64,000 nucleotides of DNA from an uncultured virus (IMG/VR IMGVR_UViG_3300030376_006489) (Duplodnaviria; Heunggongvirae; Uroviricota; Caudoviricetes), in IMG/VR virus record IMGVR_UViG_3300030376_006489; one strand, 5' to 3'. Under the pieces are notes generated by a model, which searched no databases, was not told the DNA's origin, and saw only the letters and a program-made list of their open reading frames with translations. This document shows, one piece after another, positions 16,411 to 44,606 of this stretch (position 1 is its first letter; every line of letters begins with the position of its first letter). The translations under genes were made by a program, and so were the position numbers.

Positions 16411-17619
16411 ATGTCTTTAAAAGAAAAAATTAAAAACGCACTTAAATGGAAAAAAACATCAGAATATTGCGCAGAAAGATTAGGTATAACAGAAGAAGAG
16501 TTTGATAAAATAAAAAAAGAAATTCAATCAGAAGGAAGAGAAAAAAGAAAAGAAGAAAAAGAAATGAGTTATGCAACGGAAGATTGCACATCTTCATATG
16601 ATATAGAAAGTGGACAAGGGAAGATTACAGGAATATCTCAAACAGAACCTAAATCCCCAGAAGAAATTATAAAAATATTAAATATTGATGTAACACAATG
16701 GAAGTTGTCTCAATATTGGAATAAACAAATGTCAGATCATTGGCGTATATCAGCTTTAATCACAAAGCTTAAAAATGATGATACTGCTCATATAGAACAA
16801 TTACTTGAAAACTGGAAACCAAAAAAATTCTCTCCAGTTAAAAGAATTAAAAGTGAAGGTAAAAAAGATGTATGTGCTGTATTATCATTACAAGACATTC
16901 ACTTTGGTAAACAGGGTAATGAAACTATAGACAAAGACTTTGAGGAAACTATTATGGATCTTGTAGAAAGAGCACATGCTAGTCATAATCTTAAAAAAAT
17001 ATATTATGTAGTAGGAGGAGATCTAATGAATATGGACAGTTGGGCTGGTACCACTACTAGCGGTACACCATTAGATAATTGCTCTACTGCTACTGAAGCG
17101 TACACACAAGCATTTGATGCAATATATTGGAGTATTAACTTTATAAAACAATATTGTGATGACTTACAAGTTGTATATATACCAGGTAACCATGATAGAT
17201 TATCTTCATTTCATTTAACACACGCTTTATCTAGAGCTATAGATGATCCTAATATACTTTGGGATGTTACATATCTTGAAAGAAAAGTATATACGTGGGG
17301 TGATAACTTTTTTGCTTTTGAACATGGAGATGTAAATACTAAAAATTCACTTTTACTTTATGCTACAGAGTTTCCTCAACAATGGGGGATAACTAAAAAC
17401 AGAACTTTATTTACAGGTCACTTACATCATAAAAAGAAAGTAGAATATATTACTACAAATGAACGTACAGGCTTCATGTTAAAAATACTTCCAAGTCTTT
17501 CTAGAACAGATTATTGGCATTATCATAATAAATTTGTAGGATCTAAAAGATCAGGTGTAATTGAATTACATGATTATAATAAAGGAAACATATGTGAACT
17601 AACTTATTCACCAGATTAA
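16411..17619 (+). CDS. Calcineurin-like metallophosphoesterase with N-terminal HTH-like segment
   Basis: All five metallophosphoesterase motifs in order: DIHFG, GGDLMN, GNHD, EHGD, GHLHH; N-terminal CAERLGITEEEF. Confidence 0.85.
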   Translation: MSLKEKIKNALKWKKTSEYCAERLGITEEEFDKIKKEIQSEGREKRKEEKEMSYATEDCTSSYDIESGQGKITGISQTEPKSPEEIIKILNIDVTQWKLSQYWNKQMSDHWRISALITKLKNDDTAHIEQLLENWKPKKFSPVKRIKSEGKKDVCAVLSLQDIHFGKQGNETIDKDFEETIMDLVERAHASHNLKKIYYVVGGDLMNMDSWAGTTTSGTPLDNCSTATEAYTQAFDAIYWSINFIKQYCDDLQVVYIPGNHDRLSSFHLTHALSRAIDDPNILWDVTYLERKVYTWGDNFFAFEHGDVNTKNSLLLYATEFPQQWGITKNRTLFTGHLHHKKKVEYITTNERTGFMLKILPSLSRTDYWHYHNKFVGSKRSGVIELHDYNKGNICELTYSPD

Positions 17620-25700: not shown

Positions 25701-28364
25701 AATCAAGGAGCTACCGCTCTCTATGGTGAAAATGTAGCATCAGAAATATTAGGATTAATACCTTGTGAATTAGAAGAAACTGAAGGACTAGAATGCCCAG
25801 TGGGATGCAACTTGACAGAAACATCAGCAGGTCAAATGGAATGTTATTGTTCAGAAACATTAGGTGAACCTGCAGGTTTTGCTTCTGATACATTAATAGA
25901 TATAAGTTTGACAGATACTGAATATTTTGAAGATGTATCATGGACAATAAGCTATGATCCAAAAAATAAAGCATGGATGTCATTTCATGATTGGCATCCT
26001 GAACTTGTTATGCCAAGTTATAGTCATTTTTTAACTACAAAAAGTACAGTAACACAAACTCCATCATGTCCTCCAGGATGGACATTTAGTTCAACATCAC
26101 AAATGTGTGAAAGAGACGGTGAATATTATGGATTAGATTCTATAATAACAGTAGACGATATTAAAGCACCATGCATGGAACCTACTAGTCAAATGACGGG
26201 AAGAAAATTAGACATAATATTTTCTTTAGATGTTTCTTGGTCTACAGTTAGAAACATTGATGTAAATGCAGATTTAGAAGAAGGACCTCCTATTAGTTAT
26301 GAAGGAACTATATACAAATCACAATTAGAATTTATAGATGCTTTTGCTGTAGCAATGACAGCTCAAATGGCAGCAAACGAAGTTCAAATTGGAATAATAC
26401 CATGGAATGATCAAGTAGTTCTTGCACCAATGTGGTTATATTATCCTGAAGATGATATAACAAAATTAGATCTAACAAATAATCTATCAGCAATAAGAAC
26501 CTTTTTGGGAGTTGGAGATGGATTTACAAACCCTAATTACTCACAAGGATTTTTAGCAATTGCAGGCGGAAATTCAGATGTTACAAGAGGTTTTGATGCT
26601 GCTAAAGGAGGATTAGATTATATTTTAAAATATCCTACAGCAGGTACAAACAATCAAGGAAATTCATATTTAGGATCCAGACAAGGAGAAAATTCTTTTG
26701 AAAGACATGCAATATTTGTAACTGATACAGGACCAGAAGGAATTACTTCTTTAGCATTAAAGATTTCTAATTTAGAAAGTAATGATGATACAGGTTTAAT
26801 AGATACAAGTTCGGAATGCTTTAAAAAAGCAATGGAAAATCTATTTTGGGGAACTGGAAATAATGGGTTATATGCTTTTAACTTTGATAGAAATAATACT
26901 ATATCCCCTAATGTAGATGAAGGATTTGCTGATCCACCTTTAAACACTCCGTCTACTAGTGGATACGGTCTTCAAGCTCAGCATTGGATGGATATGGTTA
27001 GATGTGAATGTACTCAAAATGTTATAAACGGTGATGGAATATCTCCTGTTATGTCAAATTATAATAGAGCAGCAGATCCTACAATGAATATTAATATAAC
27101 AGCAGTATTTACAAATCCTGATAACGAGGATAATTCTGAAGCTTATACAAAAAATGTATTTCCAATTCTTAAATCATTTAATGAATCAAGCGTACCAGTT
27201 TGGGATCTTGTAGGAAACGAAAATTCTTGGGGAAATATAGCAGCAGACGGATCAGAATATTTAAATAATGCTGGAGAATGGGAACCTTTTAGTGCAATAT
27301 CAAGCAATGTAGATAGCTTTGTAACACAAGTAAATTCTAATGCAGCAGATCTTGTAGATCAAATTTTACCATTTAGTGATGACAATAATGATAGAGACTG
27401 TAGAAGATGGTGTCCTGATCCAGAAAGAACACTGGTATGGTTAAACGGTTCAAATTACAGTTCACCAAATAAAATAGGCAATGTTGATAAAGCAGTATGT
27501 AGAAAAGTAACATGTGAGTGTGATCCTATAATACAACAAGTAGTAATAAACAATGGATGGAACCTTTATGATCCAAATGGTGATTTTGAGGGTACCGGTG
27601 TAACAAACGTTGTAGGAGATTGTCCTGATTTTGATCCATTAATTTATGCAATAGGAGATCCTAATTTTAGTTTTTGGGATTGGGATGACTATAGACATCC
27701 TCATTGTTGTGTTACTGAAATATGCCACTATCCTCCTAGTTATGATGTAGGCGGAATATGGAAACATAATATAAGATGTGATTCATATGCAAATTATTAT
27801 GGTATAGATTACCCGTGGGAAATAGAATGGGTAGAAGGTACAGGACAACACGTTTATACATTAAGAAATGTAGAATATCAAATGGAATCCTATATTTACA
27901 AAGGGGCTTTAGCTAATGATTGTGGAGATAGATTCCATGATTTAGATTGGAATTTTGATGAAGCTGTTATTTATAATACAGAACAAGTATCAGGATTATT
28001 AAAATTAAATTTAACTCCTAAAAATAATGTTCCTTTGATAACTCAATATCCAATAATAGGAGCTAATGATATTGAAATATTGTATAGTAAAGAAGAACAA
28101 GTATACAGATTTAATCAATTTTGGGATATAACATTTGACAGAGGAGAGTTTAATCCTGGTATAAGTAATTCAATTTATTTAACACAACTTAATGGTTATA
28201 TAAGAGATTTAAATGCACAAAATTTAAATTATAATAAACCAGCTTTACAACGTAAGAAATTTAGACATTATTGGAATAAAGTACTTCTTAGAAAAAATGT
28301 TTCTGGAAATAGAAAAATGATATTAAAGTTAGCTAACACAAAACTAAATAAGTCACATAGATAA
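19779..28364 (+). CDS. Tail stabilisation / muzzle protein (P22 gp10-like) with inserted vWA-like domains
   Basis: 2861 aa; N-terminal FAGGMTKD...ARNA..., YWDDGLNPSR, FMRDEVYSF, GGDTYVNRY, SWTISYDP..WMSFHDWHP, IWKHN resemble crAss-like muzzle proteins; internal DIIFSLDVSWS MIDAS motif. Confidence 0.8.
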   Translation: MPKEPKKNPNLQDQTNIDTDLFAGGMTKDPNASIQSKEHWTHARNAINNSDKGDLGTLGNEPSNLFCTDVTYPIIGTVYLYGDKWVIFSTDNNTSEIGIFDDSECLYTPVVNDSSGSSDQGCTPEHCLNFSQQYLITGASKENFDCTWQVYWDDGLNPSRTMNLTNIPWKTERVENGDCVTYEPIEPKQIDCDLIRLAPLLDTPNIALSKSDNGGQLRNGSYQAFIAYTINGQQIGDYIGISNVQSLFDHEDMVGALDIKLSGLDKGEFEEFKLVILSNWQQEQQAKEIGLYSVETLQIGVDYINQSLPTVPIEFLPLRNPAYEKSEKMYVVNDYLIRSGPTERFDFNYQPLANQIETHWTSTEVPADYYANGGNKTNFMRDEVYSFFIRWIYDTGEKSSSYHIPGRAASEYDIPAVLANTGVQSVDQLMNPGDPNCLDPDEKVFQTYNTAGWGYWQATGPFPTDDGGFITFRGSMGYWESTERYPMDPVRWNANIGNPDLDLCGKPIRHHKFPTEQTGLVAGAMGPCTRSGVTAQSMRIMGVKFSNIHLPRLNPETIQEECEETETDVVNLVPGIVGYEILVGSRAGNKSIIAKGIARNMRNHRLPPDAAGNKSHESIGNMQAVHANYPFNDIGCDPFLHNPGGSTDQYSSDGLGDEDDPPEWAYGRNNSQGIPHPSNWSKQNMFTFHSPETSFDRPFLSPYELHSYGLCAGGSYGLFKKSEKHPGEKLINTTAAVIAIIIGVGYAIAKTRGKRRVKFDYPQTHIPLASASAGGAIAASVGLAGGNAAGLAITQAGTAVSESVHTGSAILGAPGLGQEAAQLFNTGTAWGAQALMSGGSHGGGKTIEYDRSGSFFSELPSVFQPIYGVIAFMQSVAEGGNHILELIYNLCSYVDYAYKFNGHGLYRATYPFNAGDCWRTKVEKARYVKNTITNLSNTVRMNNLFRPATVAVLGEDETNADSHVLREPRVWIDGFPLYDNSRHQGTMQNCNWPSMPFMKNILAHYCGLKLNFENQYGQLDQIKQIPITNSEYGNGYHLLSKFLDRDANDEIIPPDINTTLWSWSLYGGDTYVNRYTEKVIMPFFWDFLKGQPNGFVYDYRLRANVMFPMFWANFERYDLSKLTKWITDLTFLDTPATLAGAMPYGYYHLDNCDGGCAGWSGSWGNDQAFFSAAEFGDASTGDSLQTNDISGTQGFETQGGGTGNLLGLFTGGGGGSGNTSTFSSFTNSISGGGTPNATSDTWNADDSGDKRGKGLFHIKDGYFYTHSSGIQDFFVESEYNIALRDYEDTKYKRHYDWLEFTDINTLFTADVLSAGNFYKYDKALSISNLVTQQISSGDIQPRYYDPKVAETCWTHYPKRLIYSLQAQKEATKDFWRVFLPNNYKDFKNKVNVIKPVSKSGAVILFPHLSPMMWQGVDQLQTDLGTKITIGDGGLFSQPQQNIVNADLSHEYGSCESSRGVINTPTGLFYISQQQGKIFHMAGQGLLNIADQGMKQWFNEYLPSKLIQDFPELENHPEWSDNPIAGAGCQAVYDPNYDLVYFCKKDYKLISNHECVEFIPGQGFVYNATLCDGAAQTQCCPEGFSIIPELSTMRCSRDWWVSPSPTNEIACKDPYDIIFVIYGGDRISNPTGVNNPQFSWGEGDANNPAWQTLRDTMTYTFQGLADNGQLGPGADDSQVMIMQFDNSTGLDNHYIDYTGNLGTLLDFANNGYMNPDYVSEGGVDNIPEGSDPSGATWWALEWGYRKGRPGVKKMLIEIWAAYDAVCTYNWSGIDDNDYPDLPSCNGCTYAGFDSPASYIEDGTNWTPIAPPMVNIIADNIGEPGSLGFDRGLNDYGLNNAWLTPEDETLFVGPVCSPQEQGAFDNYLDWKNDNVFDASCRYQNPNHPDFDGELTVIGVWYSPWNYCKCTNDGASNNGCNMDPNVSGSLGYPNNHPSMVNNANWNIGAAPTQGNIDYTVARSSPGHAIWSPMSPGPNQGATALYGENVASEILGLIPCELEETEGLECPVGCNLTETSAGQMECYCSETLGEPAGFASDTLIDISLTDTEYFEDVSWTISYDPKNKAWMSFHDWHPELVMPSYSHFLTTKSTVTQTPSCPPGWTFSSTSQMCERDGEYYGLDSIITVDDIKAPCMEPTSQMTGRKLDIIFSLDVSWSTVRNIDVNADLEEGPPISYEGTIYKSQLEFIDAFAVAMTAQMAANEVQIGIIPWNDQVVLAPMWLYYPEDDITKLDLTNNLSAIRTFLGVGDGFTNPNYSQGFLAIAGGNSDVTRGFDAAKGGLDYILKYPTAGTNNQGNSYLGSRQGENSFERHAIFVTDTGPEGITSLALKISNLESNDDTGLIDTSSECFKKAMENLFWGTGNNGLYAFNFDRNNTISPNVDEGFADPPLNTPSTSGYGLQAQHWMDMVRCECTQNVINGDGISPVMSNYNRAADPTMNINITAVFTNPDNEDNSEAYTKNVFPILKSFNESSVPVWDLVGNENSWGNIAADGSEYLNNAGEWEPFSAISSNVDSFVTQVNSNAADLVDQILPFSDDNNDRDCRRWCPDPERTLVWLNGSNYSSPNKIGNVDKAVCRKVTCECDPIIQQVVINNGWNLYDPNGDFEGTGVTNVVGDCPDFDPLIYAIGDPNFSFWDWDDYRHPHCCVTEICHYPPSYDVGGIWKHNIRCDSYANYYGIDYPWEIEWVEGTGQHVYTLRNVEYQMESYIYKGALANDCGDRFHDLDWNFDEAVIYNTEQVSGLLKLNLTPKNNVPLITQYPIIGANDIEILYSKEEQVYRFNQFWDITFDRGEFNPGISNSIYLTQLNGYIRDLNAQNLNYNKPALQRKKFRHYWNKVLLRKNVSGNRKMILKLANTKLNKSHR

Positions 28365-31300
28365 TGAAGTATAGCAAACACGGATATAAGAGAAACAGTA
28401 AGGATAGAAACAATCCTTATAATGTAATACCTTCAGGTGAGATCACTATGAAAGGTGTTGACTTTCCTATATACGGTGTTGATGATTTAGGTAATGAAAA
28501 AGTAATGATGCCAGGTGCACACTATACATTTCCAGGTAATACAGTATTAGAAGTTCCATTACACAACATGCAACAAGGAGGAGAAGAACAACCAAGAATG
28601 CACCCATTTGAAGAATGGGCAACTTCTCAAGGAATGGATCCTCAACAAGCTTTACAAATGATATCATCTAATCCTGAAGGATATCCACCAGAAGTTATTG
28701 AAGCTGCACAAGCTTATGCTCAGGAATTACAAAGACAAAATCCTATCAATGATAAACAAGATGAAATGCTACATGAAGCACAACAAGAACAATCTTTATA
28801 TCAAGAAGGAGATGAAGTTCCAACAGAACCTGAAATATATACATTAGGAACAGATGAACTTGGAAATATTCCAGGTGAATATTATAATTCTACAGGAGAA
28901 TTTAAAGAACAACCTTGGTTAAGTAGACAAGGGTTTAGAGAAGAATTAACAGGACCAGAATATCCTTGGAGTTTTAAAAATGAAGAAGGGTATAATAAAT
29001 GGGATAAAGAAGGCATATCAGAAATAGACTATGGGATAAAAGAATCTGAAAAAGAAAACTTGCTTCAAACATATAATTATCTAGAGGAAACTGGTGCTTT
29101 AGATTATTTATATGATGATGATGAATATGATCAAGTAAGAAATGAGTATAGCGGTTTAGATTTAATGGAACAACATCTAAAGAGAATTAAATCTTTACCT
29201 GAAGATGAGAAAACGGATCTTTTGGATTGGGATGACTATGATGCTTATTCACAAGTAGCAGAACATCATGGCAAAGACTATTTAGGTTATGGAGAATTTG
29301 TAGATCTTCCAGTAAATGAAAGATTTTCTTCTTTTACACCAAGTGAAATAAATGAAGTTCTTTATCCAGGATTAGATCTAGAAGTGATGAAACCAGCTTC
29401 TGGAGAATTAACATATGATCCTCTTGCTTTTCTACCTTTTCCTGCTGGAGCTGTAACAGGTGGAATAGCAAAACCTATTCTTAGATTTGCTGATGACGCA
29501 TTAAAATATGGTAAAAACTTCTTTAAGAGAATACCTCTAAAAAAACAAGCAGATGAAGTTGCAGAATGGATGTATAAATATTATAATCATCCAAAACGAA
29601 TACACTCACCAGTTATACATAATCAACAAGCAAGATGGGCTAGAAAGTTTAATGATATAAATTCAGGCCATAGACTAGAATCAACTCTTCCTAATACTAT
29701 GAGAGAAATGATGAGAGAGGTGACACCTATACCAAACCTCATGCAAAGAATTAATATGAGAGTACCATACAACAAGTTGATAGACCGTAATATAAGTTAT
29801 GGTAATATGTTTAAAGGAGTTCAACCTGGAAATATAAGCAATGTAACAAGAGATGGCTTACTAAGAGATTTTAGAAAGTATATACCTGGAGATCCTAGTG
29901 TAATGGGTAATTCTGCTTTATATCAAAATAGTTATAGACATTTATTACAAGATGTAGTTGGTGATTTAGGATTAAGGAAAGGACTTGATCATTTTGCTAA
30001 GAGATGGTTCGGTTCTTCTGGAGTTTCTTATAGACCAAATATTTCAAGTATGCCTAGGACATCAGGAAAGTTTTACACACAATCAAGACAGGGACCATCT
30101 ATTATTAAACAATCACCACAAGAGATTAAAAGTACAATGGTGCATGAAGGAGATCATTTTTTTCATGCTAACAATATGAGAATGCCAGAGATACAAAGAG
30201 CTGCATTAAAATCTTTAACTACAAAAAACAAATATCAAGGAGGTTTAGGAGAAAGATTATATAAAAAACTTTTTGGAAAAAATACAACATTTTATAAAGG
30301 GGCAAAAAATTACTATCAAGGTGTAGGTGAAATAAATGCACGTATAATGGAAATGAGACATGGTATGAATTTAATGCCTGGACAAAAACTCAGTAAACCA
30401 GCATTAGAATTATATATGAAAAAGAATCCAAGTCTTAATGGTATGAAAAAATGGTTAAATGTAGATAAAACTGGTAAATTTAACAAGGATGAATTCTTAA
30501 CTTATTTTAATACTTATTATGAAGAAGGAGGAGAAGAAAATAATCCAGAACCAACTCTTGTAACTCCTGGAACAAACGAATACCGTAAAGCATATCAGGA
30601 TAATACATTAACAACATATAATCCAGAAGACAACTCATATCATTTTCCAACACTTGATGAAGTTACAGTAACAGATGATTTACCAGCAACACCACAAGCT
30701 CTTAGAGAATGGTCTAGAACAAATGATCCTATTGCATATGCTACTAGAGAAGCGACAACAGAAGCAGCTCCATATGCTTTAGCACTGATGGCACCAGCAC
30801 TTATTGGAGCAAGTTTACCAATAGCAACAGCAATAGGAACTTCAGCCCCTGTAACTGCAGGTGTAGGTTTATTAGATGATGTAGCAATGGGTTTATATAA
30901 CAGCCCATATGTAGGAGGAGCTATTAGAAATGCATGGAATTATAATCCCACAAAAATACCAGGATTAACTGTAGGAAACATAACTAATGCAGGGTTTGCT
31001 GGACACGGTGCTGCTAATATAGGACCTAATACTGGAGAACTTATAGAGGATCCATCATTATCAAACACAGCAGATGTAGGAATGAACGTTTTAGAAATGT
31101 CTCCTTTCTTTGGACCTACAACTAACGCAATAAAAGGCGGATTTGGTGTTTTAAAAAATACATTTAAAACTACAGGATCTAATGCTTCTTATATTGATGA
31201 GTTTTTACTTTCTGAAAAACAGCTTGCAGGAATTACAGATAAAATGAGATCATCCGCAGATAATTTAGTTAACCCTGCATATACTTTTTCAATAGATAAA

Positions 31301-34300
31301 ACTAAAGAAATTAATAGTGGGTATAGTAAAGTTTTAAATGAATGGAGTAGTGCAAAAGGAAGAAATAGATTATCTGAAACAATTAGAGATTATCTAACTA
31401 ATCCATATACATATAATAGATTAAACGTAAAGCCAATATATAATAAGGCAGATGATGTTCCACAAGAACTTATAGATGACGCTATTGAGCAATTTTTAGG
31501 TGCACAAAGAAATTTAATATTACAACCTATTGATGAAATTGGTGCAGCGGGTTGGGGTGGTAAAACAGGACTCCCGCGTCCTTTCTTACAGTTAAATCCA
31601 CAATTATCTGGTGATATGTTAGATCAAGTTATAAGACATGAAATGGGACATATACTACAAGGTTTACCAGCTCATGTAAATTTAAAAAAATATGATCCAA
31701 GCAGATACGAAAAACTTTTTGATTATGGTATGATACCTCCTCACAGATATCAAGGTGTAGGTGTTATTGATGAACTCGGAGGAACTAAAAATTCTTTTGG
31801 TATGACATATGGACGTCAATCTCTAGCACAAAATATAGGATTGACTCATAATCAATTACAAATGGATAAAGATTTAATTGCTGGTTTAAAATTAAAACCA
31901 GAATATCAAAATGTATTAGAACGTGATATACCAAAAGACGTAAATTTTATAAGAGGATTGAGTTTAGATAACACAAATGACCGAACAAGAGGCTTATTTC
32001 AAATAAACCCATTAGGTGCAGGTAAATATTTTACATCTGGATCTGGTAAAACTTTTGGGGCAAGTAGAGAACCAACACCTTTTTTAACAGAACTTAGAAC
32101 AGCTATGAAAAATAAAGGGTATATAGATGATGTACACCAACAAGTAACACAAAAGGATATTCTTAATTTTTATAAAAATTATTATAATGCTCCTAGTTCT
32201 ACTCTAGGCGGATCACGTGCAATACCTGATATAAGACTTTTAGAGATAATGGAACCAAGTGTTAGTAATTTTAATTTCTTAGCTGAAACAATGAACAAGC
32301 TTCCTGCAACTATTCCACTTGTAGGAGCAGGACTAATGGGTTCAGATAAAGCTGGACCAGGATATCAACCAGGTGGTGAATTAGAGTATACCCCACAAAC
32401 ACAAGAAGAAGTAAAGTTAAATGATGTTAAAGATGGAGAAGTAAATACAGAAGGCTTAACACCTTATGTAAATTATAATATACCTTATGATATAGACTTC
32501 CATGAAACAGATGTTCCAGATTATATAAAATTAAGACAATCAATAGCAGAATCTACTTTAGATCCAAATGCAGTATCTGAAGCAGGTGCTACAGGATTAA
32601 CACAAATAATGCCAATAACTTTAACAGATTATGAAGAAAGAACGGGGGATACAAGCATAGATTTAACAAACCATCAAGACGCAATGAAAGTTCAAGATTG
32701 GTTAATGAATGATTTATATAATGCAGATTGGATTAATAAACCCAAGCAATCAGAAATGGTTAGAATGGCAAAAACTCTATCAGCATATAATTGGGGCAGA
32801 ACAAGATTTAATGAATTTCTAAATAAACAAAAAAGTAATAAAGTAGATATATATGGTGATAAAATGCCTTGGATTCAAAATCTACCTAAAGAAACTAGAG
32901 ATTATTTATCTAAAATATTATGGGATACACATCCACAAATGACAATTGATTACAAGCATGTAATGGATAGACCTGAAAAATATGGAGTTTATTTTGATGC
33001 TTATAATTTTAATTATAAAAAAGGAGGAGAACAAAAAAGACAACAAAGACTTTGGAAAGAATATAAAAAATACGCAAAAGGAGAAAAGATATCCCCTATA
33101 GTTACAAAAGAGTTAGAAGATTTAGGTTTAATTAAATCACATGTAATTCAACCAAATACATATTATACAGATGATGGAGGCGAAATATCATTTGCTGATG
33201 AATATTCATTAGATGACTTAGAGCTATCAAAAATTTCTAGAGAATCTACATCACCTTTTTCATTAAAACAGCAAGTAGGTTTTTATCAAGATCATATAAA
33301 TGGTGTTTATGATAACTCAAAAAACTTTACAAAATCTAAAACTTTATTTGATAAAATTAATAGACTTTATTTATTAGATGCAAAACAAAATAACAAACAT
33401 GTATTAAGCTACATGAGATCACTACCTAAGTTTCAAAACGAAGGAGAAGTTAATAATGATGTTATTACAGAAAATACGGAGACTACAACAGATAATATCT
33501 CACCAGACATAACTGGAGAAAATATTAATTACTTAAATAATGCCTTATATAATTATACAGAACCAGATTCAATTGCAATAAACAAGGCACAGATGGATAA
33601 TACAAATGTTAATTTAAATCTTGATAGTTTAATTGAAAAAAATCCCAATTTCAATTATCAAAATATGGATGATGATGCGTTTAATAGAGCAATTAATAAT
33701 GTATATAATGATACAATAGATGAAGCAGATTGGAATAAAACAACAAAGAATGAATTGTTATTTCCTAGAGCTGAACAATCAACTGAAACAAATCCTATCT
33801 ATCATGATGAGGATAGAAATCTTGGTGCTATATTGTACTATTCACCACGAAATGAACATGAAACTTTTTTTAAATCTGATTCAGAAAGAATGACCCCATA
33901 TTTAGATGAAACATATGGTGCCGGAAATTATAAAGTTGTACAATTACCACATCAAGCTTATCAACCAAGATATACAGAGTTATCTGACTTAATGTTCAAT
34001 CATCCAGCAATGTTAGAGTTTAAAGAATCTCAAGCCGCAATAAGAGGAACATATAATCCTCAGTTTGATACTTTAAATGAGGAAATCAGTGCTTTAGCTA
34101 GAGAATTAGGTAATGAGCATGATGAAGACTCTGACAACTATAAAAGACTAGATAAGTTATTTAAGGCTAAAAACCAAGAAATATTTGATTTAGAAGACAT
34201 TTATGTAAAAGAAAGAAGAGAGCATAGAGATAATTTTTATGATAATTTAGAAACAACACATCCTGATTTATTTGAAATCCGAAATGAATACAATGATAAT

Positions 34301-37168: not shown

Positions 37169-37179
37169 ATTATGTCAAT

Positions 37180-37196
37180 ATTATTTAGTATATTAT
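37180..37196 (+). promoter_or_regulatory. Candidate late promoter motif ATTATTTAGTATATTAT
   Basis: Identical to 6751-6767. Confidence 0.6.
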
Positions 37197-37218
37197 TATA
37201 GTAAACTGTATTTTTAAA

Positions 37219-40200
37219 ATGTCAAGAAAATTAAAAAGATATCAACAACAGGGAGAGGTTAAGTTAACACTAAAACAATGGTGTTCACAAAACGGTGATA
37301 TATGCACTTCAGATCCTCAAAGAGCCACTCAATTATATGATAAGTATTCAACAATGCATGATATGTCTCAAATAGATATAGGGTTTAATACTAGTGGAAA
37401 TATGGATATAGCATTTGGAGGAGTAGATACTTCACCAGAAGCAGAAGAAGCACAATACAATGCAGGACCACAACTTAATCCTGATAACCTTCAATATTTT
37501 AAAGCTCTTAATCAAGATCATTTAATGCTTCCAGCATATGGACAATCTCCTTTACCGCATTTAGCTGCTGGGCTTTATAATGCATTTCATGATATAAAAG
37601 ATATTTTTACAGAACCATCAGAACAGCAAGTAACTGGATATCAAACTGGAGAATACGTAATTGATCCAGAATTACAAGCTAAACATCCTAACAACCCAAA
37701 AAGATTTTTAGTACCTAGAAAAGAATATTTAAATAAATATTATCAAAACTGGTTTGATAAAAGAACAGAAATGTACCCTGATAAATTTGCAGCTGTTGAT
37801 TTTGATTTAGATGAATGGAATCAAACCGGGCAACTTAGTTATATAGGAGATCCTTTAGAAGGAGATTTATATGAACTAGAAAATCCTGATGCAGATGTAA
37901 TAACATGGGATAAAGATGAAGAAGGAAATCTTGATGATATGACTTCTTGGGGTGAATATGAGGATGATGGAACTTTAACAACAACACCTTTTGAAACAGA
38001 TGTTGAAACAGATGTTGAAACAGATACAGATGAAACTTTAGTAGATGAAGATCCTATTGTTATACCAGATGAGGTAGAAAATTATGAACCAGAATTTATT
38101 GAAGAAGATGAAGAAGAGGTAGTTATATTAGATACAGGTCAAGAAGGTAAAGAAACTAAAGAGTCACCAGATCCAACAGGAACTACACAAGGTGAAGAGG
38201 AGATGGCCACAACAGGTTATACAATACCACCAACTATTGAGCCGTCTTTAGAAAATGAAGAGTATAGACAAGAATACCTTAATAAAATAAAAAACTGGTA
38301 TGATAACGCACCTGATGATTATTATGATCCTAATGTAGTGATACATGATACAGACGGAAGATCATATTATGAACCATATTATGAAACAATAAATTTATAT
38401 CAAAATGATATAGATAGATTAGGAATGAATCCATTAATGAGTCACGAGTTACATCATCATATGCAAAATGTAAATGATGAGTTAACATATCATCAAATGA
38501 TGAAAAAATTCTATCCAGATAATGCAGGTTTACATTTTAACACATATGTTCCTAAACCCAAAGGTCCAGTTACACATCAAGTTTTAGGAAATTATTATGA
38601 CAGAAGAGCTGCTGAAAAAAATATGTTAATGGATGGATTTATAGAATCTAATCCAGATTCTAGATTTTTTCCAGCTTTTCAAGAGGTTGCATATAATAGA
38701 CTAGAAGATCAGCAATATGATATACCATGGACAATGGAAGGCGAAGCACATGAAATAGAAAATCAAGGAGGGTATCCTGTAAATATTTTAAACAGACTTG
38801 CAGAAAATGCAGAATTAAGAACATATCAAGATGGAGGAGATGATGGAGGAGATGATGGTGGAGATGACGGATGGGATGCTAGCGGAGATGATGATGGTGG
38901 AGATTGGGACATAGATGAAGGAAGTTATGATCCTGATATATATACATTTAATCCTGAACTTGATGATCAAATTGATGCAGATGAGAATGACAGTTATCAA
39001 TGGACTGAAGAAGAAGAAGAGGAAGAAGAATACACTCCACAAACTGTAGATCCACCAGAGGAATATGATCCGCAAACTCAAGATTATGATCCACCAAGTG
39101 ATCCATATGATCCACCAGATGATGGAGGAGATGATTACTATGATGATGGTGAAGGTGGAGGAGGTGATCCTTGTCCAGGAGGAAATTGTAATGAAGAAGG
39201 AGGAGGAGGTGGAAGAAGTGGAGCACCACCAGAAACACAGGCAAGAAGAAAAAGTGGATGGAGTCCATATAAAAAAGGAAAAAAGTTTTTAGATAGAGAT
39301 ATACCTAAAGCATTTTGGAAATTAAGCCATGCTGCAGTTGCTATTGCAAAACCCCTTAACATGTATCTTAGTCAAAGGCAACAAAGAAAAAGACAAGAGA
39401 TGTTAAAAATGTCAACTATGGCTGATAACATGTTTGGTGTTACAGATGCAGATCTTTCAGGATCTAAAGGAGACTATACTGTAAACGAAGGTTTCTTTAG
39501 ACCTGATGATAGAACTCTTAGTAGAATGGGTAGATATGGAATGGAAATGAAATATGGAGGATCAAATGAGGATAACGGTTTACACTCTTTTATTCCTCAA
39601 GCCAGTGATGGAATGGAATATTATAAAAATAATTATCCTGGTTATGAGGATTTAACTGATAATCAAAAAAGACAATTAGATTATGAAATGAAAGGAACTA
39701 CGTATAATTTCTATGAAGATTTATATAATTTTCAAAACCCAAAGAATGTAACAGGTCCTCACTCTGATCATACAAATACAATGAGTTATCCATTTCCTGA
39801 ATACATGAGACATTATGATAATCATCCAGGAATAGATGCAAAAGGAACAGATTGGAGCGGAACATTTAAAGGCTGGGATGAAAACCCTAATGCAAATAAT
39901 TATTACAAACACAGATGGTCTAAATATGGAGACTGGGATACCAATAAAGGTTGGGGAAGATCTGAAAATAGAAAATGGGATGTATGGCAAGGGAAAGGAA
40001 GTACAGTAACAGATCCAAATACAGGAAAAGAAACCAATTGGAGAAAAGGACCATGGGAAGGTTTTTATTCAGGATATTCTTGGATGCCAGAAGATCCAAT
40101 AAGTGTTAGCGAAAAAGATTGGAATACACTTGTAGATGTAGGTTATTATAATCCTAAATATATAGATGAAAGAGGAAAATGGAGCAGAGCTAAAAATGAT

Positions 40201-41109
40201 TATGTTAATAGACACGCTGATGCTTATATGACATGGGAAAGCATACTGCGTAAAAATAATCCAGAATTAACTACAATGCAAATACATGATCTTATGCATT
40301 CAGGAGTACATAGACAATCTATGCGAGGTGGTAGAAAAGGTAGCCCATGGGCACCAGGTATTCCAACTCCAGAAAGAATGAGACAAGATGATTATAAATG
40401 GGGAGAATACAGTGATGTATTATTTAACAATAGACAAGTAATGCCTCCAGGCAGCCGTGAAGAAACAGACTATACTCCACCAGAACCACCACCACCTGAA
40501 TATCCAGATGAGCCAGAATTTGATGATGTAACATTTGATGACTTAGATGAAGAATTTGAATTACAAGATGAGGATGGAATTACAGAAATACCAGGAGAAA
40601 CAGAAATAGAAGAAGAAATAGAATATTATGATTTTGACAATGATGGGATAGCGGATGACTCTACAGATAATACAGATATAATTGATACGTATGATGATAC
40701 AACTATTGATCCTAGTACAGGAGGTATAATTCCTGCACCATCAAATATGGATGATCAATTTACAAGGTCAACAGATGGAGGATATGATCCATCAAGTAGA
40801 AATGATTATGATTATACTCCACAAACCACAAGATCAAATGAAGAAATGAATCAATCAGCATATGGAGATTCAGGTTCACCACAAACTCAAAGTTATGAAC
40901 CACAAGCTACTAGCGGAACAGAAGAATATATACCTCAAACAGTAGCAGGTACTGATGAGTATGAACCACAAACACAGCAATCAGATGAAGAGGATAGTAC
41001 AGATGCTAAATATGGTGGACAGTTTTTTAATAATGGAGGAGAAGCTGAAATAGATATAAACACATATAAACAATTAATTGCTGCAGGAGCAGATATAGAA
41101 ATATTATAA
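37219..41109 (+). CDS. Acidic virion cargo protein with zincin-like domain
   Basis: 1296 aa, strongly D/E-rich; HELHH (38443) with downstream EGEA; DDGG and YxPQT repeats; C-terminal EIDINTYKQLIAAGADIEIL. Confidence 0.6.
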   Translation: MSRKLKRYQQQGEVKLTLKQWCSQNGDICTSDPQRATQLYDKYSTMHDMSQIDIGFNTSGNMDIAFGGVDTSPEAEEAQYNAGPQLNPDNLQYFKALNQDHLMLPAYGQSPLPHLAAGLYNAFHDIKDIFTEPSEQQVTGYQTGEYVIDPELQAKHPNNPKRFLVPRKEYLNKYYQNWFDKRTEMYPDKFAAVDFDLDEWNQTGQLSYIGDPLEGDLYELENPDADVITWDKDEEGNLDDMTSWGEYEDDGTLTTTPFETDVETDVETDTDETLVDEDPIVIPDEVENYEPEFIEEDEEEVVILDTGQEGKETKESPDPTGTTQGEEEMATTGYTIPPTIEPSLENEEYRQEYLNKIKNWYDNAPDDYYDPNVVIHDTDGRSYYEPYYETINLYQNDIDRLGMNPLMSHELHHHMQNVNDELTYHQMMKKFYPDNAGLHFNTYVPKPKGPVTHQVLGNYYDRRAAEKNMLMDGFIESNPDSRFFPAFQEVAYNRLEDQQYDIPWTMEGEAHEIENQGGYPVNILNRLAENAELRTYQDGGDDGGDDGGDDGWDASGDDDGGDWDIDEGSYDPDIYTFNPELDDQIDADENDSYQWTEEEEEEEEYTPQTVDPPEEYDPQTQDYDPPSDPYDPPDDGGDDYYDDGEGGGGDPCPGGNCNEEGGGGGRSGAPPETQARRKSGWSPYKKGKKFLDRDIPKAFWKLSHAAVAIAKPLNMYLSQRQQRKRQEMLKMSTMADNMFGVTDADLSGSKGDYTVNEGFFRPDDRTLSRMGRYGMEMKYGGSNEDNGLHSFIPQASDGMEYYKNNYPGYEDLTDNQKRQLDYEMKGTTYNFYEDLYNFQNPKNVTGPHSDHTNTMSYPFPEYMRHYDNHPGIDAKGTDWSGTFKGWDENPNANNYYKHRWSKYGDWDTNKGWGRSENRKWDVWQGKGSTVTDPNTGKETNWRKGPWEGFYSGYSWMPEDPISVSEKDWNTLVDVGYYNPKYIDERGKWSRAKNDYVNRHADAYMTWESILRKNNPELTTMQIHDLMHSGVHRQSMRGGRKGSPWAPGIPTPERMRQDDYKWGEYSDVLFNNRQVMPPGSREETDYTPPEPPPPEYPDEPEFDDVTFDDLDEEFELQDEDGITEIPGETEIEEEIEYYDFDNDGIADDSTDNTDIIDTYDDTTIDPSTGGIIPAPSNMDDQFTRSTDGGYDPSSRNDYDYTPQTTRSNEEMNQSAYGDSGSPQTQSYEPQATSGTEEYIPQTVAGTDEYEPQTQQSDEEDSTDAKYGGQFFNNGGEAEIDINTYKQLIAAGADIEIL
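38830..38901 (+). repeat. Degenerate GATGATGGWGGA coding repeat (DDGG)n
   Basis: gatggaggagat gatggaggagat gatggtggagat gacgga... visible in the sequence. Confidence 0.7.
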
Positions 41110-41111
41110 TT

Positions 41112-44100
41112 ATGAAAGTTAGAATTAAAAAATTACCTAAAGGATTTTCAGTAAGAGATGGACATGTTATGAAAAACAAATCTCATGGTGGAAGCCATAC
41201 AGGAGATCAAGAATCATTTGGACTTGTAACATTACCTTCTCCGTATACAAATGATATAACATCTGGTAATTTTAATAATCCATTTGGAGATGTTAACACT
41301 TCATTAAAAGCTGTACCAAGAGAAGAAGCAAATCTTGAAGCAGAAGTTGGAGAAACTGTTTTAACTGATATGAATAATGATGGTGATTTTGAATTATATA
41401 ATATAGGAGGTAAAAGACACCACAAAGGAGGAACACCTTTAAATCTTCCACCACAATCCTTTATCTATTCAGATACAGGAGCTATGAAACTTGATAAATT
41501 TGAATTATCTGAAATGGGAATAGATTCTAAAAAGAAATTAACACCTGCAGAAGTTTCTAAAAATTATCAATTAAACAAATACATTTCTATACTTAGTGAT
41601 CCTCATTCAGATAAAATTGCTAATGATACAGCAGAATACATGATGCAAAAAAATAAAGAATCATTATCTCAATTAGCATTTTTACAAGAAGCTAAAAAAG
41701 ATTTTGAAGATGGTGTACCTTTAGCATCATATCCTTATTTATATAATCAAGGGATTGATCCAATTAGATTTTCTCAAAAAGTAGAAGGTCTTACAAAACA
41801 AGAAGCTGAACAAAAGGCTCTTATGCAACTACCACCTGAAGAGAGAATGAAAATTATGAAATTAAAAGAAATGGTACAGCAAGCTTCACAACAATCAGCG
41901 GGACCTCAAGGACCTCCACAAATGACAGCTCCTCAAGGAATGCCACCTCAACAAATGACGGAACAACCTATGCCACCACAAGGAATGGCTATGCAACCAC
42001 CTATGGCTCAAGCAGCACCAATGCCAATGATGAGATATGGAGGAGCATTACGTAAATTTCAAGGAGATACAGGATCAAGTGAAGTAGATATGATTAATGC
42101 ACAACAACAAGGAATACAAAATCAAATAGATAATTTAAATACAGATACGTACTATAATGAAGTATTAAAACAAATACAAGCTGCTCAAAATATGTATTTT
42201 GACCAATTAGACAATCAAGAAAAAATAAGTAATGAATTAGGTGCAAATCAAAGTTTAAGAAATTCAAATTCTGAATTAACAGGAGCAGCATATAATAATA
42301 AAAATATTATTCCTGGATCAGAAATGGAATTTGCACAAGATGTATTAAAATGGAAAAAACACATTGAAGCAGGTGGACAAGCACCTTCAACTATAAATCC
42401 AGCATATACTGAAGCATATAATCAAATAAATGGTAATTATGAGTTTAAAGAAGAAGAAGAAGAAAACACAGAAGATACACAAGCTGTTATTAATAACACA
42501 TATATAACAAACGCTGAAAAAGAAAATAAAGAATTAGAAAGAGTGCATAAACAGTATCAAGATTACATTAGAAGTATAAGTCATGAACAAGTAACAGATC
42601 AAAGACAAAATGAAAAACAAGGATATGCCCCTATGAATAGCCCATTAGACTTTCAAGATAAATCTAGCCCATATTATGTAGGATCTCCATTTGCAACAGG
42701 AGATACTTTAGAAACAATGAGATATGGAGGATCTGTAAGGAAATTAAAAAGATTTAAAAAGGGAGGCCAAATACCAAAAAGCGCTTTTCCTATAACAAAT
42801 AAACGTACCGGTGAAGTAATTGCTGCAAATCAAAATGAACTAGATAATTTAAAAGATTCAAATAAAGCTTTGTATGATAGAATAGTACAGGCATATGGTA
42901 GCTCAACAGGAAATGCATCTGAAGTACCTACTAGAACATCTAGTGACGAAACAAAAAAAACATATAAAGGATTTAATAGTTGGAGTGATTATTATGATAG
43001 TGATGATGCTTCTACATATAGAGATAAAAGATATCAAGCATATAGAATAGTAGCAGAAAAAAATGGAATGACCCCTCTTTCTGCAGAGGAATATCATAAA
43101 AAATATTCACAATATATGAGAGAAGTAGACAGTTTTACATCTAAATCTGAAAACGATCCTTTATATGCAAACAATCCAAATTGGGATAGTACTTATGAAT
43201 GGGAAATGTCAGATACACCATGTGCACAAGGTGAATCAGGTTGTAAAGAATATGGAGGTAATACTTGGAGAGTTACAAGCTGGGATAAAAAAGGACAAAA
43301 TTGGTATTATAATCAAGAACAAAAATCTTTAGGATTAACAGAGGACGGAGAAAGCATAGATCCAATGGATGCTGAAACCATACAGCATATGCAAACAGGA
43401 ATGAATGCTGGTATTATATTACAAAATACAGGACAAGGAGAAGACACATATGACGCACCAGTTAATTTTGATGTTTATACAAATGAGGATGGAACACAAG
43501 TAGATCCATTATCAGGAACATCTAAAGCAGAAGGATGGGCTGGAAATAATACAATGTTTAATGCAGAAGGAACATATGATATAGTTCCTGCAGAAGGTTG
43601 TACTAATGCAGCAGAAATACAACAACAATGTGAAGCACAGGGTGGAACATTTACACCATGGGATCCTCAAACACAAACAGGATGTACTTGTGAACCAGCT
43701 GAACAAAAAGAAGTTCCAGAAGATATAATTCCAGGAGAAATAGGAAAACCTGCTACATTACCAAAACCGGAATGGTGGATACAAGATAAGCTAAAATATC
43801 AAAACGCTTTAGATAATAAAATGAGCTTAAGAAAATATTATCCATGGGCTCCTAAGTATAATGCTCATTTAATAGATCCTGTATTTAAAGATCCTACAAG
43901 AGAAATTGCAGCTATTGGAGAACAAGCTGTTATAGCAGCTGATACAGCTTCTGCATTTTCAGGACCTCAAAGAGCCGCAGCAGTTCAGGCAAAAGCACAA
44001 GGTAAGGCAGGACAACAAATAGCTGATACTGTTAACAGAGTGCAAAGTGATAATATTACAATTGCTAATACTGTTGCAGCTAAAAATGCTGAAATTATGT

Positions 44101-44606
44101 ATAAAACGCAAGTTTTAAATAATAATGAAGCTAAACAACTATATGATAATACAATGTTAGTTGAACAAAATTATGATAATGCAATGAGAAAAGCTAATAC
44201 TGAAATAACAGATTCATTATCAAATGCTTATACTAATATGGCTAATACATATAACCTTAACACACTGTATAAGAATTTTGACATTCTTCCAGGAACAGGA
44301 GGTATGGTTGATATAACTAATTATGATGAATTTAATAAAGATCCAAACCATCAATCTCCTCAAAGTGTAGCACAACAATATGCAAACTTTAAACAAACAA
44401 TGTTAAAGTCACCAGGTGTAGATCCAGATGATATCCCAAAATTCCAAGAATGGTATGAGACAATATTTAAATCTGGACAAGGTGTACCTAATAACGATGC
44501 ACAAGCTGTTTTAACAGGAGGATATGCAAGAAGAGGAGGTGAATTTAGAGATTTAAGATTAGCTCAAAAGGGTATGGAATTGAAAAACTTTTTAACAGGA
44601 GTGTAA
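41112..44606 (+). CDS. Virion cargo/ejection protein
   Basis: 1164 aa; N-terminal ANLEAEVGETV...GGKRHHKGGTPL segment resembles crAss-like cargo proteins; P/Q/M-rich linker; A/Q/N-rich helical C-terminus typical of ejection proteins. Confidence 0.6.
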   Translation: MKVRIKKLPKGFSVRDGHVMKNKSHGGSHTGDQESFGLVTLPSPYTNDITSGNFNNPFGDVNTSLKAVPREEANLEAEVGETVLTDMNNDGDFELYNIGGKRHHKGGTPLNLPPQSFIYSDTGAMKLDKFELSEMGIDSKKKLTPAEVSKNYQLNKYISILSDPHSDKIANDTAEYMMQKNKESLSQLAFLQEAKKDFEDGVPLASYPYLYNQGIDPIRFSQKVEGLTKQEAEQKALMQLPPEERMKIMKLKEMVQQASQQSAGPQGPPQMTAPQGMPPQQMTEQPMPPQGMAMQPPMAQAAPMPMMRYGGALRKFQGDTGSSEVDMINAQQQGIQNQIDNLNTDTYYNEVLKQIQAAQNMYFDQLDNQEKISNELGANQSLRNSNSELTGAAYNNKNIIPGSEMEFAQDVLKWKKHIEAGGQAPSTINPAYTEAYNQINGNYEFKEEEEENTEDTQAVINNTYITNAEKENKELERVHKQYQDYIRSISHEQVTDQRQNEKQGYAPMNSPLDFQDKSSPYYVGSPFATGDTLETMRYGGSVRKLKRFKKGGQIPKSAFPITNKRTGEVIAANQNELDNLKDSNKALYDRIVQAYGSSTGNASEVPTRTSSDETKKTYKGFNSWSDYYDSDDASTYRDKRYQAYRIVAEKNGMTPLSAEEYHKKYSQYMREVDSFTSKSENDPLYANNPNWDSTYEWEMSDTPCAQGESGCKEYGGNTWRVTSWDKKGQNWYYNQEQKSLGLTEDGESIDPMDAETIQHMQTGMNAGIILQNTGQGEDTYDAPVNFDVYTNEDGTQVDPLSGTSKAEGWAGNNTMFNAEGTYDIVPAEGCTNAAEIQQQCEAQGGTFTPWDPQTQTGCTCEPAEQKEVPEDIIPGEIGKPATLPKPEWWIQDKLKYQNALDNKMSLRKYYPWAPKYNAHLIDPVFKDPTREIAAIGEQAVIAADTASAFSGPQRAAAVQAKAQGKAGQQIADTVNRVQSDNITIANTVAAKNAEIMYKTQVLNNNEAKQLYDNTMLVEQNYDNAMRKANTEITDSLSNAYTNMANTYNLNTLYKNFDILPGTGGMVDITNYDEFNKDPNHQSPQSVAQQYANFKQTMLKSPGVDPDDIPKFQEWYETIFKSGQGVPNNDAQAVLTGGYARRGGEFRDLRLAQKGMELKNFLTGV

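Follow-up and report, generated by a model that had tools for sequence, protein, structure and literature searches.

What marks the joints between the parts of a giant phage protein, and is such a mark cut, read by a partner, or simply carried along? The question is raised by a stretch of 64,000 nucleotides from an uncultured virus of the Caudoviricetes (IMG/VR record IMGVR_UViG_3300030376_006489), referred to below as the window, in which three large open reading frames (ORFs) lie in a row on the plus strand: ORF A (2934 aa, 28364..37168), ORF B (1296 aa, 37219..41109) and ORF C (1164 aa, 41112..44606). An earlier note on this DNA had listed short hexamers resembling xxxGGE in the three proteins, and had proposed that they punctuate the domains and serve either as protease cleavage sites or as docking signals for cargo loading. 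All three ORFs are strings of swappable modules. In comparison with relatives, the hexamers resolve into the first and the second half of a single bipartite tag of 15–16 residues, found across the clade, with the consensus M-A-[KR]-Y-G-G-[ES]-L-P-K-[AY]-Q-x-G-x-E. The tags lie in variable linkers that seem to be disordered, both between modules and close to the ends of the proteins, and it is there that modules have been acquired, deleted or exchanged in frame.

From hexamers to one bipartite tag

The series of hexamers is well beyond chance. All 21 of those listed are found in the translations, letter for letter and in place. The strict pattern [FYM]xxGGE occurs six times in the three proteins (5,394 aa) against a mean of 0.29 after shuffling, a count reached by none of 2000 shuffles, and it is absent from the other 18 ORFs of the window (15,576 aa), in agreement with the earlier impression that the series is confined to the cargo-type proteins. 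The excess persists when residues are shuffled inside blocks of 20 aa, which keeps the local composition (mean 0.27; 0 of 1000 shuffles reach six). The triplet GGE occurs nine times against a shuffle mean of 2.5 (3 of 2000 reach), with no enrichment in the other 18 ORFs (3 vs 4.5), and the looser pattern behind the original list gives 34 matches against a mean of 17.3 (0 of 2000). The G-x-E string is not enriched in the three proteins (32 vs a shuffle mean of 31.9).

The nature of the series is best seen in the relatives of these proteins. A longer peptide, for example KKYGGSLPKAQTG, MARYGGELPKAQDG or ARYGGDLPKYQNAG, recurs both in the relatives of ORF A (10 near-length proteins) and in those of ORF C (the best 150 of 1740 representatives at E ≤ 0.001). 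The consensus given above was derived from 82 aligned instances, obtained by one iteration of a hidden Markov model (HMM) from 32 seeds that had been picked with a post hoc regular expression, none of them from the window's own proteins. Read against this consensus, the original series had merged both halves of a single bipartite motif. The first half, or A-half (MA[KR]YGG[ES]L), is represented in the window by MRYGGA, MRYGGS, MKYGGS, GRYGME, AKYGGQ, KRKGGE and ARRGGE, and the second, or B-half (PK[AY]QxGxE), by YQPGGE, FQPGGE, (SLPK)FQNEGE, YQEGDE, YQDGGD, YQQQGE and AQKGME. Since the copies in the window are mostly half-tags, they were scored with one matrix for each half instead of the full-tag HMM, and both matrices were built from the relatives only, leaving out the window's own proteins. 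At 9 bits or more, the three proteins hold nine A-halves (about 0.7 expected), with one more elsewhere in the window, and nine B-halves (about 0.9 expected), with none elsewhere. An A-half-like site outside the cargo-type proteins, MMRTGGSG at 49009 (10.8 bits), lies in the giant ORF further downstream. The 24-column HMM of the full tag finds a single site in the window (ORF C 303–320), and the window's lineage appears mostly to keep a reduced 'YQxGGE' version of the tag. At the level of DNA the copies share nothing beyond codon bias: GGAGGAGAA, GGTGGTGAA and GGTGGGGAA all occur, so that the conservation must lie in the protein.

Two of the listed hexamers deserve a comment. KSHGGS (41178..41195, ORF C 23–28) was rejected as a joint, as it belongs to a conserved loop in the N-terminal domain of the ORF C family (HGG..TGDQ). 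ASDGME (39601..39618, ORF B 795–800) scores below 7 bits, and its context, IPQASDGME, is that of a weak B-half 10 aa after MKYGGS. There is also a second recurrent element, at 33014–33080 of the window and in the relatives P0004–P0006, P0009 and P0010. It consists of KKGG and a basic helix directly after it (for example QKRQQRLWKEYKKY or KIKRIKQQL), and is similar to the tails at the C-termini of ORF C relatives. The listed hexamer YKKGGE (33014..33031, ORF A 1551–1556) is this variant, invariant in 5 of 5 aligned sequences, with the basic helix after it and no homology breakpoint.

The tag is widespread among homologues, as the earlier note had proposed to check. At 10 bits or more the A-half is present in 123 and the B-half in 125 of 159 relatives, and for 63 of their 212 A-halves the next B-half begins exactly 8 residues on. 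A broader sample came from an alignment of the ORF C N-terminal domain with 19 sequences (the window's own and 18 hand-picked from the best 150 relatives), which as a query retrieved 170 relatives from IMG/VR; 80 loci were kept, and their 435 plus-strand ORFs of at least 150 aa (487,364 aa) were examined, shorter and minus-strand ORFs being left out. These loci hold 296 A-halves and 434 B-halves, compared with 43 and 71 after shuffling. The 101 unique full tags form a sharply bounded conserved island from −3 to +12, with flanks of 0.1–0.3 bits. Within it, conservation extends across about 11 residues (Y0 58%, G+1 100%, L/I+4 97%, Q+8 91% and G+10 75%, core percentages that are inflated because the instances were picked with our own matrices). 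The residues that would stand at P1 of a cleavage site are G+2 (73%, otherwise R, K, T or S) and E+12 (42%). The tendency noticed at the start for basic residues to precede and acidic ones to follow is seen here as well, with K/R at −1 in 68%, E/D at +3 in 53% and E at +12 in 42%. Outside the tag the relatives are 27–50% identical. Among the cultured phages checked, none could serve as a model of the full tag; Cellulophaga phage phi14:2 has no [YF]GG.[LI] in 19 virion-region proteins (10,873 aa), and its matrix matches are scattered and weak. A full-text literature search for LPKAQ returned no phage papers, judged by title, and hence no published description of the tag. Searches on Crassvirales ejection proteins and proteolysis listed nothing relevant, and one on proteolysis in crAss-like virions gave no papers.

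Module joints and protein ends

The ten near-length relatives of ORF A are mosaics, each covering 2–60% of ORF A at 53–84% identity, and the places where their homology starts and stops can be compared with the positions of the tags. After endpoints within 15 aa of either protein's end were dropped, 18 of 38 internal endpoints in ORF A fell within 10 aa of the eight sites of the earlier note. Random placement gives a mean of 1.9 (0 of 5000 reach 18) and circular shifts of the sites a mean of 2.2 (9 of 5000). In independent IMG/VR ORFs, 43 of 86 endpoints in ORF A lie near the sites (38 of 5000), mostly at the end of a 72-aa leader, and 11 of 31 do so in ORF B (238 of 5000). Individual joints are sharper than these counts. 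At FQPGGE in ORF A, the homology of P0002 stops at residue 2240 and that of P0005 and P0006 begins at 2241. P0003 and P0164 read NYFNNFYQPGGETDYTPQTQ, which is the left flank of the tag at residue 722 joined to the right flank of the tag at 1337; the 611-aa second HExxH module, which spans precisely the interval between the two tags, has been lost cleanly and in frame. The LysM domain recognised by Pfam in P0006 and in P0011 begins 2 residues after a GG.

The tags are also found at protein ends, where the earlier note had placed some of its hexamers. ORF A stops 8 residues past KRKGG, and ORF B starts with MSRKLKRYQQQGE. In P0006 and P0162 the same C-terminal module continues through a full tag, so that the boundary between the genes for A and B lies inside a tag. 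In the 80 loci, 35 of 355 stop-bearing ORFs carry an A-half in their last 45 residues, compared with 2 after shuffling and about 10 expected from the mean density. Such terminal A-halves are followed by short conserved tails: relatives of ORF B end in GGE-x-VDxDxLAxLIAAGADIEIL, 2–3 nt ahead of the ORF C start, and relatives of ORF C in AKKGKEIKK..PFYTGKMG. The ORF B tail and the start of ORF C (MAKIKINKLP...), at 41044–41114 of the window, are arranged in the same way in loci L006, L013–L015 and L021, among others, and the close spacing suggests a tight coupling of the two cargo genes.

The structural models bear on the same point. An AlphaFold model of ORF C, made from an alignment of the window protein with 105 of the best 150 relatives, has a mean predicted local distance difference test (pLDDT) score of 72. 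Five of the six listed sites fall in its segments with pLDDT below 50, which make up 26% of the protein, and so lie outside the confidently folded parts; the sixth, AQKGME, is in a helix. The model of ORF A residues 1330–2260, from a 5-row alignment, has a mean pLDDT of only 39.5, too low to place domain boundaries or to name the 'Cys-protease-like' module. The proposal that the hexamers fall at domain boundaries is supported in ORFs A and B by the homology breakpoints and in ORF C by the model. A Foldseek comparison of the ORF C model with the PDB gave no row, out of 60, at E ≤ 0.001.

Along ORF A, the first joint is MQQGGE (28568..28585, residues 69–74), a degenerate B-half, VPLAQxGG in relatives, with nine endpoints of high-scoring segment pairs (HSPs) at 66–79 and, in the IMG/VR ORFs, 39 of the 86 endpoints at 60–99. 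It ends the leader (28364–28579, residues 1–72), which is 72–84% identical across otherwise different mosaic proteins and may be the constant 'head' of this cargo family. YQEGDE (28799..28816, residues 146–151; B-half 8.8 bits) has HSP endpoints at 143 and 145. YEEGGE (30518..30535, residues 719–724) is the joint before the second HExxH module and the left crossover of the module loss in P0003 and P0164. YQPGGE (32363..32380, residues 1334–1339; B-half 11.9 bits) is the right crossover and the joint before the SLT module, and an HSP starts at 1334 in P0003, P0007 and P0164. FQNEGE (33431..33448, residues 1690–1695), in the context SLPKFQNEGE (B-half 10.6 bits), has HSP endpoints at 1694, 1710 and 1711. 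FQPGGE (35066..35083, residues 2235–2240; B-half 13.4 bits) precedes the C-terminal module, and KRKGGE (37127..37144, residues 2922–2927; A-half 11.8 bits) stands 8 aa before the stop. The hexamers, SLT domain and HExxH strings given in the text for the three ORFs are all on the plus strand.

In ORF B, YQQQGE (37240..37257, residues 8–13; B-half 7.4 bits) is at the N-terminus, and YQDGGD (38824..38841, residues 536–541; B-half 11.2 bits) leads into a low-complexity stretch. That stretch (residues ~536–670, 38824–39230 of the window) is extremely acidic and rich in Asp and Gly, GGDDGGDDGGDD...DDGEGGGGDPCPGGNCNEEGGGGG, and holds a C-x4-C pair; the 106-aa minus-strand ORF inside it (38948–39268) is probably an artefact of the repeats. 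GRYGME and MKYGGS (39529..39564, residues 771–782) are tandem A-halves of 12.7 and 13.0 bits, and HSP endpoints cluster around them at 760–800. AKYGGQ and FNNGGE (41005..41043, residues 1263–1275) are an A-half of 7.3 bits and a GGE ahead of the conserved tail ...LIAAGADIEIL.

The ORF C family has a common layout, with a conserved N-terminal domain, a spacer rich in Q, M and P, the tag and then variable modules. The low-complexity spacer (41900–42020 of the window, residues ~263–303) stands regularly between the N-terminal domain and the first tag, and reads MPPQGMPPQ... in relatives. The first tag of ORF C is PMPMMRYGGALRKFQGDT (42018..42071, residues 303–320), which contains MRYGGA and is the sole full bipartite tag of the window, with an HMM score of 18.7 bits (no match in 20 shuffled proteomes) and an A-half score of 22.6 bits; it lies in the low-pLDDT segment 263–344. 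MRYGGS and FKKGGQ(IPKSAF) (42717..42770, residues 536–553) combine an A-half of 12.5 bits with a second GG copy in the low-pLDDT segment 520–557. ARRGGE and AQKGME (44526..44579, residues 1139–1156) are an A-half of 9.7 and a B-half of 10.5 bits before the C-terminal helix, the former in the low-pLDDT segment 1124–1148 and the latter in the helix 1146–1162.

The domain names that the earlier note had put between the hexamers fared unequally. The transglycosylase is there: an SLT lytic transglycosylase domain (32546..32842, ORF A 1395–1493) matches PF01464 (E 2e-10) and phrog_669 (E 6e-19), and it was the only domain detected when 14 module-sized pieces were scanned with Pfam and NCBIfam. 'Zincin 1' and 'zincin 2' are HExxH strings at residues 594 (30143..30157) and 1092 (31637..31651) with no Pfam or NCBIfam match. 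'Cys-protease-like' finds no support beyond a near-chance lead. ORF A holds two Cys in all, and for residues 1790–2236 the best Atlas score is 0.87, to an unnamed entry, followed by a chance-level lead of 0.84 to C80, a MARTX-type peptidase family found on 13% of that cluster's members. The relatives add LysM, a YkuD-like domain and ART-PolyVal (PF18760, in P0003 and P0008).

The window and the crAss001 cargo slot

The large ORFs of the window all lie on one strand, at about 30% G+C, and family scans identify several of them as virion genes. A P22-like portal gene, truncated by the 5' end of the window, is followed by the major capsid protein (MCP; Crass_capsid PF23898, E 2e-33), CrAss_Ring_2 (PF25702), CrAss_Ring_1 (PF24228) and a 2861-aa protein that matches PHROGs of crassvirus muzzle-type virion proteins (phrog_37948, phrog_15100). 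This is the order of the same genes in Bacteroides phage crAss001. The best match of the capsid protein among 50,697 phage records is only 28% identical, so the window comes from a distant, uncultured crAss-like phage. The muzzle-like protein (19779–28364) is about twice as long as crAss001 gp44 (1371 aa), and a DNA-repair-exonuclease-like gene (402 aa, 16411–17619; phrog_704, E 5e-49) stands among the tail and ring genes. An open-ended giant ORF (48316–63999, >5228 aa), neither half of which has a PHROG match, lies where crassviruses encode their giant proteins associated with RNA polymerase.

ORFs A, B and C are directly downstream of the muzzle-like gene, within a virion module of the Crassvirales type. 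In crAss001 the slot after the muzzle gene holds the cargo proteins C1 and C2 (PMC10172136). Lying as they do between the muzzle-like gene and the giant ORF downstream of them, ORFs A–C are probably packaged in the particle too. Among cultured phages, ORF A has a match only in a Stenotrophomonas phage, and there over the SLT domain. ORF B has one HExxH (residue 409). The N-terminal domain of ORF C has no match among the 50,697 phage records, and single-protein queries of ORFs A and C found no close relatives in IMG/VR.

The cargo protein C1 of crAss001, gp45 (Bayfield et al. 2023; PDB 7QOG among others; PF25725), offers the nearest comparison. In a set of 23 crAss001 proteins (13,842 aa), [YF]GG.L occurs three times, each time in gp45 (at 208, 331 and 426), and three copies were never obtained in 20,000 shuffles of that protein. 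Two segments of gp45 are resolved, 214–245 on the tail rings R1 and R2 and 425–552 on the portal wing (PMC10172136), so that two of the three look-alike copies adjoin the start of a docked segment (chance about 0.002). The Pfam CARG1 domain of gp45 begins at 424. The segment 425–552 was built as one piece through G427–G428, and in the text available the authors describe one chain passing through the portal (PMC10172136); that text has no occurrence of 'proteoly-', 'cleav-' or 'protease', and no mention of the motif. Like ORFs A–C, gp45 is encoded right after the muzzle gene. It travels inside the particle, and its chain is believed to thread through portal and tail (PMC10172136). Unlike ORFs A–C, it has the Y-G-G-x-L core without LPKAQxG and, at 842 aa, no enzyme modules.

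ORF A also resembles the polyvalent proteins that Iyer et al. 2017 (PMC5512222) describe from phages and conjugative elements as giant, multi-module, mosaic and delivered with the DNA, the last of which would hold for ORF A by position. Polyvalent proteins have 2–15 unrelated domains per polypeptide, and ORF A has about eight tag-bounded modules, including the SLT. Their peptidoglycan-attacking and ART-PolyVal modules (PMC5512222) have counterparts here in the SLT of ORF A and in PF18760, the latter only in the relatives P0003 and P0008; the hallmark domains ART-PolyVal and MPTase-PolyVal are absent from ORFs A–C themselves, with no PolyVal Pfam family at E ≤ 5. The accessible text of the paper treats domains and no shared junction peptide, and contains neither 'linker' nor 'crAss' (PMC5512222).

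Handle, cut site or passive joint

What, then, does the tag do? We favour, with a probability of about 0.4, the reading that it is not cut, and that it serves as a flexible hinge doubling as a short handle for docking or handling. The handle would be read by a constant part of the particle, be it the portal, the tail-barrel rings, a scaffold or a loading factor, and any cassette joined by tags could in this way enter the cargo zone and pass out through the tail, one module after another. The half at the end of a module (KYGG) and the half at the start of the next (LPKAQxGxE) would travel with each cassette, which would explain why halves persist at natural termini. Several observations speak for an uncut handle. 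Conservation is distributed along some 11 residues, while the would-be P1 residues vary; the tag is kept at natural C-termini with conserved tails; the A/B gene boundary splits a tag; neither MCP nor portal carries a copy; and the gp45 look-alikes stand at the starts of docked segments.

There are also points that weigh against this reading, and against the picture of tags as joints on which it builds. The breakpoint test on ORF A is weaker with the sites from our own position-specific scoring matrices (6 of 38; 338 of 5000), and on ORF C it is not significant (31 of 416; 2267 of 5000 shifts reach this), because the alignments stop in the Q/M/P-rich spacer ahead of the tag; since endpoints from related sequences are not independent events, these and the other breakpoint counts are indications and not probabilities. 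At N-termini, the 80 loci show no excess of B-halves (9 of 366 ORFs, where mean density predicts about 11). A prediction of the complex of R1 and R2 with ORF C 300–390, modelled after gp45 214–245, scored 0.00, which is evidence neither way. The link to crAss001 is a five-residue look-alike, to be taken as a resemblance and not as homology: phmmer searches with gp45 and gp46 against the window, relative and locus proteins gave no match at E ≤ 0.01, and Pfam CARG1 (PF25725) and CARGO2 (PF25712), which score E 2e-66 and 6e-219 on gp45 and gp46, match none of the window's proteins. The middle copy in gp45, at 331, adjoins no resolved segment, and a cut immediately ahead of the tag, creating a new N-terminus, would also account for a resolved segment that begins exactly at 425. 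Finally, cutting would plausibly be needed where an SLT that acts in the periplasm shares one chain with other enzyme-like modules.

This last point leads to the best of the alternatives, namely that the tag is a processing site at which a protease cuts the polyproteins into modules in the procapsid, in the virion or after ejection. We regard it as possible, if somewhat less likely than an uncut handle. The protease could be one of the HExxH modules of ORFs A and B, an unrecognised phage protease or a host enzyme, and the terminal copies would be trimmed propeptides. Separating the modules would make functional sense, as SLT and LysM on the one hand and ART-PolyVal on the other plausibly act in different compartments, and the tags are predicted by the ORF C model to be in exposed, disordered linkers. 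The Gly-Gly and G-x-Glu strings of the hexamers resemble sites cut by adenain, African swine fever virus pS273R, C39 peptidases, T4 gp21 and phiKZ gp175. There are three HExxH strings in ORFs A and B, and zincin-like peptidases were proposed as processors of polyvalent proteins (PMC5512222). The resolved segment of gp45 that begins at 425 does so exactly at the first residue of its tag-like motif (PMC10172136). However, none of the three HExxH strings matches a protease family, and HExxH occurs in just 19 of 182 tag-bearing ORFs (24 of the 80 loci). Pfam, NCBIfam and PHROGs scans of the 64-kb window detected no protease family, and no prohead protease was found between portal and MCP or elsewhere in it, the source contig being longer, at 76,274 bp; the 432-aa ORF between these two genes gave chance-level Atlas leads to scaffolds and proteases (0.81–0.82). 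A T4-type G-x-E cut site is not supported, as G-x-E is not enriched, E+12 reaches only 42% and the MCP has no tag, unlike that of phages with a T4-type head protease. Nor is a site for a di-glycine protease, with Gly-Gly at P2–P1, since the second G is not invariant and no peptidase family is matched. In gp45 the chain was modelled continuously across G427–G428 and read as one (PMC10172136), and tags are retained at natural termini together with conserved tails. Between the two roles offered by the earlier note, the evidence thus leans against the cutting chemistries that the hexamers had suggested, while its series, its confinement to cargo-type proteins and its place at boundaries and ends all stand.

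A further alternative, which we consider unlikely, is that of a passive joint: a flexible linker without any reader, inherited along with the cassettes and marking where shuffling succeeds, kept because recombinants that cross over in the peptide stay in frame and fold. The breaks of the mosaic relatives at tags, the module loss precisely from tag to tag, the disorder predicted for the tags of ORF C and the drift of the window's lineage to the reduced 'YQxGGE' version would all be expected of such a joint. Yet 8–10 specific residues (Y, G, L, P, K, A, Q, G) are kept across relatives that have diverged widely elsewhere, the DNA that the copies have in common is not long enough for homologous recombination of the ordinary kind, and tags at natural termini join nothing. 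The remaining explanation, an artefact of chance and composition in proteins that are rich in G and E, or else internal Shine-Dalgarno-like sites that start translation of downstream modules where GGAGGAGAA encodes several of the copies, is highly improbable, as the counts of [FYM]xxGGE were never reached by global or local shuffles, matrices from other genomes recover the same sites, synonymous GGT and GGG versions occur with no start codon shown within 12 nt, on which grounds the Shine-Dalgarno idea was rejected, and the region upstream of ORF B, the one gene start examined, lacks such a sequence.

Two families of known signals help to place the tag among its neighbours. The capsid targeting sequences of T4 stand on internal proteins and Alt and are removed by the gp21 head protease, and phiKZ and SPN3US have equivalents. 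Like the tag, these are short peptides common to otherwise unrelated proteins, which are taken up into the head and ejected, and the window's version of the tag has their Glu at the end; in contrast to them, the tag is mostly internal or C-terminal, has its Glu in 42%, and comes with no detected head protease and an MCP that lacks it. The junctions of polymorphic toxins, such as VENN of CdiA and PxxxxDPxGL of Rhs, and those of the autoprocessing multi-effector MARTX toxins, are like the tag short conserved peptides where variable cassettes swap behind constant parts. In Rhs and MARTX the joint doubles as a cleavage point. They differ from the tag in sequence, belong to secreted bacterial toxins, and usually provide one joint per protein compared with about eight in ORF A.

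How the large protein cargo of crassviruses is chosen, packed and injected is an unsolved problem, in phages that count among the most abundant known. A short peptide common to the joints of modules that are otherwise unrelated and exchanged freely gives this problem a point of attack. The tag predicts where modules start and end in thousands of unannotated giant proteins, and it names the residues to mutate. If it is an address or a cut site, foreign proteins could be loaded into phage particles. We would go one step further only tentatively, with the proposal that marine crAss-like phages use the tag as a cargo-addressing code. A constant virion part would recognise any enzyme cassette flanked by the two halves, load it and keep it in its place in the series until it is ejected, or set free by an as yet unrecognised protease. 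If this were true, injected effectors could be swapped in frame with the loading machinery untouched, and the tag would offer a plug-and-play delivery grammar for engineering.

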